From: a virus | Strand: one strand, 5' to 3' | IMG/VR virus record: IMGVR_UViG_3300022750_000002 | Span: 2,314 to 66,313 of that record | DNA: 64,000 nucleotides | Shown here: positions 58,756 through 60,661 of the stretch, in pieces | How the letters are laid out: the number at the start of each line of letters is the position of its first letter | Position numbering within the stretch: the stretch's first letter is position 1 | Program-made: the position numbers and the translations under genes | The notes under the pieces: model-generated | The model's input: the letters and a program-made list of their open reading frames with translations, nothing else | What the model was told of the DNA's origin: nothing | Databases searched by the model: none

Positions 58756-59550
58756 TTACTGTATTGTACTTACTTGCATGTGTATTATAGTAATCTTGTT
58801 AGGCTTACGTTTACGAACAAGTCCGTCCTTACCCAAGAAGTAGTTTGACGTATAACACAACTCATAAAAAGCCCTGATATTAATTTTGTCCTTAGAAACT
58901 ATCTCAATATTCTTTTGTGATTTGATCAGTCCAACGGCATTTAACTTCTTTTGTATTTTGTTGCCAGTAGTTGTACTTCTTCTATTTATTAGATTGGCTA
59001 ATCCTTTATTGCTTATGCTATAATAATCCTCTGACTTTTCGGTTTTGTTTTGCAGATAGGTATTTCTCTTTTTAAGTAGTTTCTTGGCTTCTTTTGTAGA
59101 AATGAATTTATCCTCTTGCAGTTTAATGATTTCAGTTTTGAGGTTGGTAATATAGTGTTGTTGCCTAAAGTTTTTTAGTAATCGTGTAAATTGAATATTT
59201 AATATCTGTTTGTTTTTGTCTTTGTCGTATTCTACGGCAATTAGAGGCGATTGGAGCGACTTTCTAAGTTTAGTTGACCCAACTATACAAAGATTGCCGT
59301 TATGCATTGTAATAAGCCCTAATTCGGTAAGCTTCTTTATGTGCCTTTGTAGTGTAGAAATTGATAACCCTGTTTTCTTAGCTGTCTTTCTATATGAAAA
59401 GTTATAGAATTTAGGGTTGGTATAAGTTTTTCTTAGGATGATTAGTATTGAAAGCGAACGTTCCCATTTTTGATCAATAGCGGATTGTATTACCGCTTCG
59501 GGTAGCCAAGTGTATTTATCATAATGGATATTAATTTGTTTCAAAAGCAA
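58756..59550 (-). CDS. Tandem winged-helix DNA-binding protein (Rep-like), TTG start
   Basis: SYRKTAKKTGLSISTLQRHIKKLTELGLI and ISNKGLANLINRRSTTTGNKIQKKLNAVGLI. Confidence 0.7.
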   Translation of the reverse strand: MLLKQINIHYDKYTWLPEAVIQSAIDQKWERSLSILIILRKTYTNPKFYNFSYRKTAKKTGLSISTLQRHIKKLTELGLITMHNGNLCIVGSTKLRKSLQSPLIAVEYDKDKNKQILNIQFTRLLKNFRQQHYITNLKTEIIKLQEDKFISTKEAKKLLKKRNTYLQNKTEKSEDYYSISNKGLANLINRRSTTTGNKIQKKLNAVGLIKSQKNIEIVSKDKINIRAFYELCYTSNYFLGKDGLVRKRKPNKITIIHMQVSTIQ

Positions 59551-59633
59551 AAGGGTTAGCGAATGTAACTTATTACCTTGATTGACGCTGTGGTAGGGCT
59601 TATCGGTAATCTCTGTTAACTCACTAACCCTTT
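59550..59633 (-). promoter_or_regulatory. Long hairpin SL2 sequestering the TTG start region
   Basis: AAAGGGTTAG/CTAACCCTTT, ATTACC/GGTAAT and GAT/ATC stems; 19-nt loop with CCTACCACAGCG. Confidence 0.75.
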
Positions 59634-59692
59634 AGGGGTATATCTTGATGTTGTTGTATGATTGTCCTGCCTACCACAGCGGTTTCAACCAT
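59624..59692 (-). CDS. Leader peptide MVETAVVGRTIIQQHQDIPLKG (not in ORF track)
   Basis: ATG 5 nt after TATCTTTG (59698-59705); stop TAG lies inside the SL2 5' arm. Confidence 0.55.
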   Translation of the reverse strand: MVETAVVGRTIIQQHQDIPLKG

Positions 59693-59716
59693 TACATCAA
59701 AGATATGAATATTATT

Positions 59717-59887
59717 TTATAAGTAACCAAAAGCTATGGCGCAAATTTCTCCAATATCGGCTAAATCTGTTTCTTGTTCATTGTCATCATCACCCTCGCC
59801 ATATATTTCGGCTAACTGATTATCCAAAGCATCCCATTTGTCAGCCTTTATTTTCAAGGCATTGTATTCTTCTTGTGAAATTTCCAT
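59717..59887 (-). CDS. Small acidic protein (56 aa from MEISQEE)
   Basis: 16 D+E vs 3 K; A-rich initiation region before ATG 59887. Confidence 0.65.
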   Translation of the reverse strand: MEISQEEYNALKIKADKWDALDNQLAEIYGEGDDDNEQETDLADIGEICAIAFGYL

Positions 59888-59913
59888 GTTATTTTCTTTA
59901 AATTTTTCTAAAT

Positions 59914-59950
59914 AAAAAACGGTAGATACCTCATCCAAGAATATCTACCG
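59914..59950 (-). terminator. Intrinsic terminator
   Basis: ACGGTAGATA/TATCTACCGT perfect 10-bp stem plus T-tract on the minus strand. Confidence 0.75.
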
Positions 59951-60010
59951 TATCTAAATTAACGCATCTCAATGAATGAACACTGATTACAAGGCTCTCA
60001 CCCCTTGTAG

Positions 60011-60050
60011 AGATGGATGCCGAGTCGAACGGCTTTATCCACTTCCATCT
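60011..60050 (-). ncRNA. tRNA-like minihelix (acceptor stem plus T-arm, no D or anticodon arm)
   Basis: AGATGGA/TCCATCT 7 bp; GCCG-TTCGACT-CGGC. Confidence 0.55.
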
Positions 60051-60661
60051 TATTTATGTTTTAGTAAAAGTTCTTCAAACTCATATTTCGGCAAAGACAT
60101 TAAATACTCAGCCCTATAAGCAGCAATACAGCCTCGCAATCCAAACAATATAGTTTTAGACCATTCTCCTTCATGCCATGTAAAACCATTCTTTTTAAGC
60201 TTGTTTTTACGCTGTGTAGCGGCACTTTCTGTCAACGGCTCTGCAAGTACCCACCCCGTCTTTAAACACTCTATAATAGCCCTACAAGCTTTCTGTGATG
60301 AAGGCATTTCTATTCTAGGTTCTTTACCTTCTAAAAACAATTTATGTTTAAGTAATTTATACCTAACAGGAGCTAATTCATTCGCAAAACCTTTGCAATC
60401 TATTAACACATCGTAGTCAGGCAAATAGTAATCTGGGGTACACTTCATGCCTAAAACAGTCTCGTGTCTATACGTGAAACTTGGTTGTAATTCGTATACA
60501 GGTTTTATATCAAAATTAATGTTATTTTCTTTAAGAAGGTTGTATAAGTAATTTTCGAGTTTACTATCAAAGACTATCCCGTCTTGTTCTACTTTGGTTG
60601 ATTTTATCTTTCGCTTATCCGGTTCTGAACCGTCTTTAGCTTTAAATCTTTGTCTGAACAT
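60050..60661 (-). CDS. DUF1064-family PD-(D/E)XK nuclease
   Basis: KVEQDGIVFDSKLE...YELQPSF...TPDY...IDCKG. Confidence 0.85.
   Translation of the reverse strand: MFRQRFKAKDGSEPDKRKIKSTKVEQDGIVFDSKLENYLYNLLKENNINFDIKPVYELQPSFTYRHETVLGMKCTPDYYLPDYDVLIDCKGFANELAPVRYKLLKHKLFLEGKEPRIEMPSSQKACRAIIECLKTGWVLAEPLTESAATQRKNKLKKNGFTWHEGEWSKTILFGLRGCIAAYRAEYLMSLPKYEFEELLLKHK

Follow-up and report, generated by a model that had tools for sequence, protein, structure and literature searches.

A promoter-proximal leader with complementary hairpin loops ahead of a Rep-like gene in a Bacteroidota phage

The control of replication by structured leaders and antisense RNAs is textbook knowledge for plasmids of Proteobacteria and Firmicutes and for the phages P1 and P4. 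To our knowledge, almost nothing is known of such control in phages of the Bacteroidota, whose promoters and translation signals differ. In phage T4, the promoters of I-TevI, e and soc are embedded in hairpins, and an arm is missing there from the very hairpin that conceals the ribosome site. The c4 system of phages P1 and P7, with its regulator and a1b1/a2b2 copies, is similar to P4 immunity, and the P1/P7 C4 antisense RNA is a known family. In satellite phage P4, the leader contains the complementary sequences seqA and seqC (and seqB) together with the CI RNA, and the replication genes are controlled by premature termination (PMC4825925). In the repY-repZ and repB-repA leaders of the IncI-alpha (ColIb-P9) and IncB (pMU720) plasmids, an activating pseudoknot is opposed by an antisense Inc RNA, as the original studies are cited in PMC8053102 (Asano and Mizobuchi, 1998; Praszkier and Pittard, 2002). 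The genes pT181 repC and pIP501 repR are subject to countertranscript attenuation at a terminator immediately 5' of the rep start codon (PMC5703833). Here, we describe a leader of about 150 nt (roughly 59693-59543, minus strand) that is promoter-proximal and lies ahead of a replication-initiator-like (Rep-like) gene in the IMG/VR virus record IMGVR_UViG_3300022750_000002. The window, that is, the whole stretch of DNA analysed, has 64,000 nucleotides (positions 2,314 to 66,313 of the record), and positions are counted from its first letter. The loops of two hairpins in this leader, stem-loop 1 (SL1) and stem-loop 2 (SL2), hold the complementary segments A and A', and comparison of related loci indicates that the A:A' pairing is real and under selection.

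The genome from which the window comes is a complete phage genome of 73,024 bp with direct terminal repeats. Its large terminase is distantly related (26% identity) to the terminases of Cellulophaga, Flavobacterium and Maribacter phages in GenBank. The features of the leader are the following.

59728..59731, minus strand: -33-like TTTG, 22 nt upstream of the -7 box, within the 3' end of the upstream small open reading frame (ORF)
59698..59705, minus strand: -7 box TATCTTTG, Bacteroidota sigma-A type, from sequence and conservation
59640..59706, minus strand: SL1, with an outer and an inner stem, from the RNAfold minimum-free-energy structure
59706-59694 with 59652-59640, minus strand: outer stem of SL1, its 5' arm being the -7 box
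59692-59686 with 59664-59658, minus strand: inner stem of SL1, ATGGTTG/CAATCAT, with a 21-nt loop
59670..59681, minus strand: A, the 12-mer CGCTGTGGTAGG in the SL1 loop, 5' partner of the loop-loop helix
59624..59692, minus strand: 22-codon ORF, starting 1 nt after the predicted transcription start, not conserved
59586..59597, minus strand: A', the 12-mer CCTACCACAGCG in the 27-nt apical loop of SL2, 3' partner of the helix
59550..59633, minus strand: SL2, an irregular, terminator-like hairpin of 84 nt with base stem AAAGGGTTAGTGAGTTAAC / GTTACATTCGCTAACCCTTT
59542..59552, minus strand: U tract UUUUGCUUUUG, containing the in-frame UUG codons 59550 and 59544
58756..59544, minus strand: Rep-like gene of 262 aa with two winged helix-turn-helix (wHTH) domains and a UUG start, from homologue N-termini, Pfam, PHROG and AlphaFold

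The repeat search found A and A' to be 100% complementary, with 72 nt between the arms, and a 12-nt inverted repeat at that spacing arose in only 1 of 1000 shuffles of the window leader. The best nested fold of the region computed by RNAfold has -47.9 kcal/mol (z = -4.06), and none of 200 shuffles folded as well. SL1 and SL2 with free loops give -39.1 kcal/mol and the A:A' duplex is calculated at -22.4 kcal/mol; since their sum lies well under the best nested fold, the pseudoknotted state (SL1 + SL2 + A:A') should dominate in the window leader. Across the leaders, the duplex is worth -11.5 to -26.8 kcal/mol, and together with the SL1 and SL2 fold the total is under the best nested fold. An earlier reading of the letters of this stretch, hereafter the original prediction, had listed the promoter box, the ATG with its 22-codon ORF, SL1, the 12-mer in its loop, SL2, the exact complement and the U tract. 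All of these are present as described, including the leader stop (TAG at 59626-59624) within the 5' arm of SL2.

Covariation of the two 12-mers in homologues had been proposed there as the test of the pairing, and the outcome was positive. Homologues of the Rep-like protein were gathered and their loci were then fetched, and window-type leaders were also found through the SL2-base pattern. Among the 17 Rep-homologue loci of this sample, 15 have a leader with the A/A' design, in which perfect complements of 8-15 nt are made of unrelated letters. The leaders share one layout, with a TAnnTTTG-like box, A 10-19 nt later and A' a further 53-82 nt on, at the tip of SL2. The A segments, and the lengths of two further pairs, are as follows.

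Window and L001: CGCTGTGGTAGG, 12 nt
L159: GACCCTGGCAGG, 12 nt
L143: TTGCAGGCAG, 10 nt
L142: ATTGCTGTGGAAGGC, 15 nt
L151: GCCTGTCA, 8 nt plus a G-U pair extension
L006: GGACTTCCAA, 10 nt
L007: GGCTTTCAA, 9 nt
L008: TTGCAACGGG, 10 nt
L009: TTGGAACACAAAGG, 14 nt
L130: TTCGCAGTCA, 10 nt
L131: GGACGTGGAAATC, 13 nt
L132: AAGCCGTGCAAGG, 13 nt
L175: GACGACCAAATCA, 13 nt
Element 2, a second leader in the window's genome: A:A' of 13 nt
Second leader of G001, the closest relative: A:A' of 11 nt

Because MAFFT loses the shifting registers of A and A' in an alignment, the pairs were assessed by shuffles of each sequence and not by a column-wise pair count. A:A' exceeds all other repeats in 8 of the 14 leaders tested, and of 1000 shuffles 0-8 attained its length; in the remaining 6 the SL2 stem is longer than A:A', so these figures cover the A:A' of 8 leaders only. 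Two controls were added. A scan of viral contigs for generic terminators gave no new family members, and the 121 hairpin-plus-U-run sites that it returned served as a control, in which a complement between loop and upstream sequence reached 9 nt once and 8 nt ten times. Downstream of the 66 -7 boxes of the genome that lie outside ORFs, a complement of at least 10 nt occurs only at the two elements. A chance origin of A:A' is rejected by the shuffles and both controls, and the recurrence of the pair with unrelated letters argues that it is maintained by selection. That one pairing recurs in over a dozen independent versions is strong support from natural mutation, and the element is well supported as a structure.

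The second hairpin covaries as well. Its stem reads AGCCCTATTG, AGCCGTACTG, AGCCGTACC, AGCCCGAC, TCCGTTTAGC or AGCCTCAC in different leaders, each with its own complement. In every leader a G+C-based hairpin that carries A' is followed by a U run and then by the start codon, and this unit ends 0-12 nt before the start while the stem sequences differ. In window-type leaders the distance from SL2 to the start codon is fixed at 6-9 nt, and all seven of these leaders have the consensus CCCUUUU-N2-3-U(U/A)UG in common. In other leader types the SL2 pairing reaches or crosses the start codon, and there the letters covary too (CTGCATAAA/TTTATGCAG, CATAAAAAA/TTTTTTATG, ATAAGGCA/TGCCTTAT and ACGACAATAA/TTATTGTCGT). 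The same hairpin and U-run design stands ahead of the start in L006-L009, for example GGCUUUUUUAUG. In the window, the U tract begins at the end of SL2, which occupies position -6 and beyond upstream relative to the start codon, 6 nt separating it from the UUG at 59544.

The original prediction placed the gene start at a TTG on which the 3' arm of SL2 ends. The abutment of SL2 on the start region was borne out, whereas the start itself is likely the second UUG (59544) and not the first TTG (59550), because the database copy of the protein starts there and ATG-started homologues align there, and because the frame from the first TTG meets a stop in L001. Depending on the TTG chosen, the ORF has 262-264 codons. 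For the homologue in L008, the gene caller sets the start at a TTG inside the A' loop (L008:3001-3040); an ATG after the U run fits the homologues better, although the first such ATG opens a frame of only 3 codons.

Its product can be called a replication-initiator-like protein only weakly, on domain and model matches. HTH_24, HTH_36 and HTH_Crp_2 were found in Pfam, with a weak RP-C; RP-C, DnaD_N and RepL all score under their cut-offs. PHROG 270 and 428, both annotated "replication initiation protein", match over the first wHTH domain with E = 1e-5 to 1e-6. The AlphaFold model (predicted local distance difference test, pLDDT, 88.7) has two wHTH domains linked by a long helix. In a wide structural search, it matches the RepA_N plasmid initiator 4pta best (Z 6.5) and the DnaD N-terminal domain next (Z 5.2), weak matches among many generic wHTH regulators, and Foldseek against the PDB returned generic winged-helix regulators only. 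These results agree with the original prediction, which had SL2 ending at the start of a Rep-like gene with tandem wHTH domains and assigned the phage to the Bacteroidota.

The Bacteroidota sigma-A promoter consists of a -7 element TAnnTTTG (TAHHTTTG) and an optional -33 TTTG 19-21 nt upstream (PMC6847099; PMC9723704). By this consensus, the leader region is predicted to carry such a promoter. The -7 box of Flavobacterium spans -12 to -5 (PMC6847099), a geometry that puts the predicted transcription start at 59693, 1 base before the ATG and at the foot of the inner SL1 stem. There are only 10 copies of the full motif TTTG-N17-23-TAnnTTTG in the genome of 73 kb. A box equal or close to TAnnTTTG was found in 15/15 leaders while the surrounding sequence changes; the -33 element is not retained in all relatives. 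The 19-kb leftward gene cluster, which is that of replication, has only two intergenic -7 boxes on the minus strand, one per leader element. The elements thus sit at its only two host-type promoters and offer a handle on the timing and dosing of replication genes.

As in the hairpin-embedded promoters of T4, the -7 box forms part of a hairpin, here the 5' arm of the outer SL1 stem, and equivalents of the SL1 stems with the box in the 5' arm are seen in other leaders too. For the outer stem to form, transcription must have entered from upstream, so that read-through RNA and RNA started at the box would fold differently. Unlike in T4, the hairpin that loses an arm is SL1, which lies far from the start codon. 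The small ORF upstream of the leader stops at 59717 (minus strand). Just upstream of this ORF, at 59915-59953 on the minus strand, there is a hairpin resembling an intrinsic terminator, CGGTAGATA ... TATCTACCG followed by six T, and read-through from further upstream must pass that site before reaching the leader.

The leader also occurs in second copies and appears to be exchanged as a unit. Element 2 lies outside the window, in the same genome (G000 70,650-70,830, minus strand; L003:1420-1596). It has the box TATATTTG, the SL1 stem ATGATT/AATCAT and the same SL2 base as the window leader, AAAGGGTTAG/CTAACCCTTT; its A/A' pair, CACCGTTGCAAAG/CTTTGCAACGGTG, is different from the window pair. 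The window's genome thus has one Rep gene and two leaders. G001 has two Rep-like paralogues, each with a UUG start, its own leader and its own pair (CGCTGTGGTAGG and GCCAAGCGCCC). The second of these paralogues, of 257 aa with a TTG start, is located at G001:C1:38029-38954 on the minus strand (loci L191/L192), and its leader has the box TATCTTTG, A/A' of GCCAAGCGCCC/GGGCGCTTGGC and the SL2 base AAAGGGGTT/AACCCCTTT. Since the two leaders of each of these genomes differ in their pairs, the pairs are, as far as their sequences tell, private (orthogonal) within a genome.

Two comparisons suggest that the leader is a recombination module, as it looks like one in sequence. The leader of L001, a locus of the closest relative, is almost identical to that of the window, with A, A' and their flanks unchanged, and the small gene upstream of it is unrelated, which marks a mosaic boundary (59717-59938 against L001:2550-2830). 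In L006 and L007, the Rep-like protein is 86-87% identical to that of the window and the whole leader is of another sequence type.

With moderate confidence, we favour a reading in which the leader lies directly behind its promoter, SL2 ends transcription, covers the start or does both, and the A:A' loop-loop helix is the gating contact. A hairpin followed by a U run is an intrinsic termination signal. SL2 would act as the default OFF device, an intrinsic terminator for RNA from the leader promoter and for RNA from upstream. In read-through RNA it would also cover the ribosome landing zone, and the weak UUG start would reinforce the OFF effect. Blocking of the start region would matter because Bacteroidota mRNAs, which are without Shine-Dalgarno sequences, depend on an unstructured start region; in Flavobacteria, where Shine-Dalgarno sequences are absent, structure around the start codon tunes or depresses translation (PMC6847099). 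The 12-bp A:A' helix would set how often polymerase and ribosomes pass SL2, its private sequence would allow each Rep paralogue to be gated separately, and no leader peptide would be required. As a guess of low confidence, the intramolecular helix may favour read-through or translation in the manner of the activating pseudoknot of IncI-alpha and IncB. With similarly low confidence, an occupant of loop A, most plausibly terminated leader RNA that accumulates as phage genomes multiply, may switch the gene off.

The element would work like the leaders of plasmid and phage rep genes, yet it lacks defining features of each known system. The analogy with IncI and IncB plasmids drawn in the original prediction survives in part. 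In both, the loop of a 5' hairpin in a rep leader pairs with a distant downstream site, and a hairpin hides the start region of rep. In the plasmids, however, the partner is buried beside the ribosome site in stem-loop III, whereas in the phage it lies open in the apical loop of SL2, about 45 nt upstream of the start codon. The phage helix has 8-15 bp, in contrast to a few bp in the plasmids. The phage leader further differs in having a U-tract terminator and neither a conserved leader peptide nor a conserved antisense promoter, in belonging to a host phylum without Shine-Dalgarno sequences and in preceding an unrelated Rep protein.

The likeness to pT181 and pIP501 is in the architecture, with a promoter, a leader of about 150 nt or more and a terminator-like hairpin plus poly-U directly 5' of the rep start, where the hairpin covers the translation start. 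Nearly all family members are predicted to have such a hairpin and U run directly ahead of the rep start codon. Unlike the plasmid pre-emptor, which pairs with the 5' arm of the terminator, A of the phage pairs with its loop; a pre-emptor of the SL2 5' arm was not found, A being the sole conserved upstream partner.

Searches of catalogues and databases returned no described counterpart. A search of Rfam 15 returned no relevant match for the window, for the leader region even at E values up to 10, for the surroundings of element 2 or for six related loci, and the literature searches did not find a description of such an element. The leader therefore belongs to no family of this RNA catalogue, and no paper found matched it. 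Neither the leader nor the Rep-like protein has a DNA or protein match among GenBank phages, the searched genome contigs hold no relative of the protein, and the sole match of a pattern scan of metagenomes was a relative already known. Among sequencing runs, this DNA was listed for a leaf-litter DNA metagenome, which is its likely source, and to a small share for a soil run; RNA runs were not among them.

Several observations weigh against the favoured reading of SL2 as the gated barrier ahead of a Rep gene. A' sits in the loop of SL2 and not in an arm, and SL2 and A:A' can coexist as a pseudoknot; simple competition between helices thus neither explains a change in termination nor gives the direction of control. 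Both strands fold about equally well, and G-U pairs therefore do not prove selection on a strand-specific RNA; G-U counts and the comparison of sense with antisense fold energy were accordingly set aside as a strand test, as they gave no discrimination. The Rep assignment of the protein is weak. Two sampled loci depart from the family, L176 being without the element and L177 having only a 7-nt match. Finally, no gene follows element 2, where an 8-codon ORF (MQLNPIPT) gives way to about 420 nt without ORFs, so the cassette is not strictly a device for Rep translation.

Beyond this ORF-free stretch lies an RNase H-like gene of 178 aa (region L003:1010-1596, minus strand, that is, G000:C1 ~70,230-70,830). 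The cassette of element 2, the length of its mini-ORF and the first 200 nt downstream are conserved at 73% identity in the phage contig G005/L142. The conserved stretch includes a hairpin with compensatory changes, CCGAG..TGTAGAGT/ACTCTTACA..CTCGG against TGTTTAGT/ACTAAACA. The region could be a structured non-coding RNA or a primer or origin transcript. A Rep pseudogene was considered as well; none is recognisable behind element 2, and blastx was empty.

An alternative that we consider unlikely, though it deserves to be weighed, is control by a self-antisense RNA of the P4 CI kind, in which a terminated or processed leader, consisting of SL2 with A' exposed, binds in trans to loop A of leaders still being made and causes them to terminate. 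Rep would then be shut off according to dosage or time, and A/A' would be the specificity (incompatibility) determinant. Such control would need no antisense gene, as the A' of a short terminated RNA would recognise loop A of nascent leaders of the same kind and genome number or time would feed back on Rep; we hold this equally unlikely. The perfect complements of up to 15 nt in hairpin loops are seemingly more than an intramolecular contact needs. Phages with Rep proteins of 87% identity have entirely different pairs, the pairs in a single genome and those of two Rep paralogues are orthogonal, and the cassette, with its own promoter and terminator, is predicted to yield a discrete RNA of about 150 nt. 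A self-antisense RNA would account for pairs that are long, perfect, quickly replaced and orthogonal. As in P4, complementary segments occur in one leader of a phage replication operon, premature termination is proposed and specificity differs between relatives.

However, A and A' of a complete leader would pair at once, so that a free regulator would require a processing step, which is hypothetical. Unlike P4, the phage leader has two complementary sites and no third, and the partner is at the tip of the terminator. The 12-mer has only two copies, A and A', in the whole 73-kb genome at up to 1 mismatch; the regulator with two target copies known from P4 and P1/P7 was thus not found, and a trans target of A or A' inside the phage genome is rejected. 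Nor does the leader match any Rfam family, the P1/P7 C4 antisense RNA included. Integrase and resolvase genes are not detectable in the phage genome, which makes immunity in the lysogenic sense unlikely. If self-antisense control were true, the changing A/A' would be an address that prevents cross-talk between Rep paralogues or co-infecting relatives, and virulent Bacteroidota phages would have a replicon-incompatibility code. The pairs could also serve engineering in Bacteroidota as a naturally occurring collection of orthogonal RNA-RNA contacts.

Quite improbable is a classical countertranscript, a small RNA of the opposite strand that binds loop A and either competes with A', like Inc RNA, or drives attenuation as in pT181 and pIP501. 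The equal folding of both strands and the near absence of G-U pairs from the A:A' helix are compatible with it, and the -7 box has a mirror image in the 3' arm of the outer SL1 stem. Read on the antisense strand, this image is a perfect TATCTTTG directed through SL1 in L130, L142 and L143. These are the only 3 of the 15 leaders with a consensus antisense box; the window counterpart reads TATCTTGA and is without the near-invariant TTTG. The antisense box always mirrors the sense box in the outer SL1 stem, and the conserved features fit stem pairing better than a second promoter. No U-run terminator for an antisense RNA is evident. In pT181 and pIP501, by contrast, the fold is determined by an antisense RNA that has a promoter of its own.

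Very improbable is the model of the original prediction, by which translation of the 22-codon ORF opens SL2 and loop-loop pairing activates rep translation, as in the coupling of repY and repZ. It is in keeping with this model that the predicted transcript begins 1 nt before the ATG, as in leaderless messages, and that the ORF crosses A and stops in the 5' arm of SL2. Comparable 5'-terminal ATG ORFs, with the ATG at the foot of SL1, are present in L001, L142 and element 2, which with the window makes 4 of the 15 leaders. On the other side, 6/15 leaders have no ATG ORF at all, and the same stem position reads TTG in L159, AAG in L151 and ACG in L143. In L001, a 1-nt insertion shifts the frame of the window ORF, the ORF of element 2 ends before SL2, stops fall at variable places, and the leaders compared have no conserved peptide. 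The leader-peptide role is thus not supported, and the 22-codon ORF is probably incidental, to judge from these comparisons.

Least credible of all is a DNA-level element, be it an origin, a cruciform or an inverted repeat bound by protein beside the initiator gene, for although the leader adjoins the Rep-like gene, the complements are perfect Watson-Crick pairs and both strands fold equally, the repeat search found no iterons, phages with near-identical Rep proteins have repeats of unrelated sequence, which speaks against recognition by a protein, the U tract and the adjacency to the start codon exist on the sense strand only, and both repeats lie in hairpin loops of a conserved promoter-to-terminator unit.

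Two further observations were made during the analysis. About 12 unrelated viral contigs (L138, L139, L141, L144-L146, L153, L154, L157 and L162-L164) share another conserved element, a hairpin AAGGGTTAG...CTAACCCTT followed by AGCCATACGGTTAGGGTCTAGGCCGGAAC, which has neither a -7 box nor a loop complement. Two genes upstream of the Rep-like gene, at 60050-60661 on the minus strand, the window encodes a 203-aa protein whose N-terminal part resembles DUF1064 and Holliday-junction resolvases (PHROG 190) and whose C-terminal part is weakly colicin-DNase-like.

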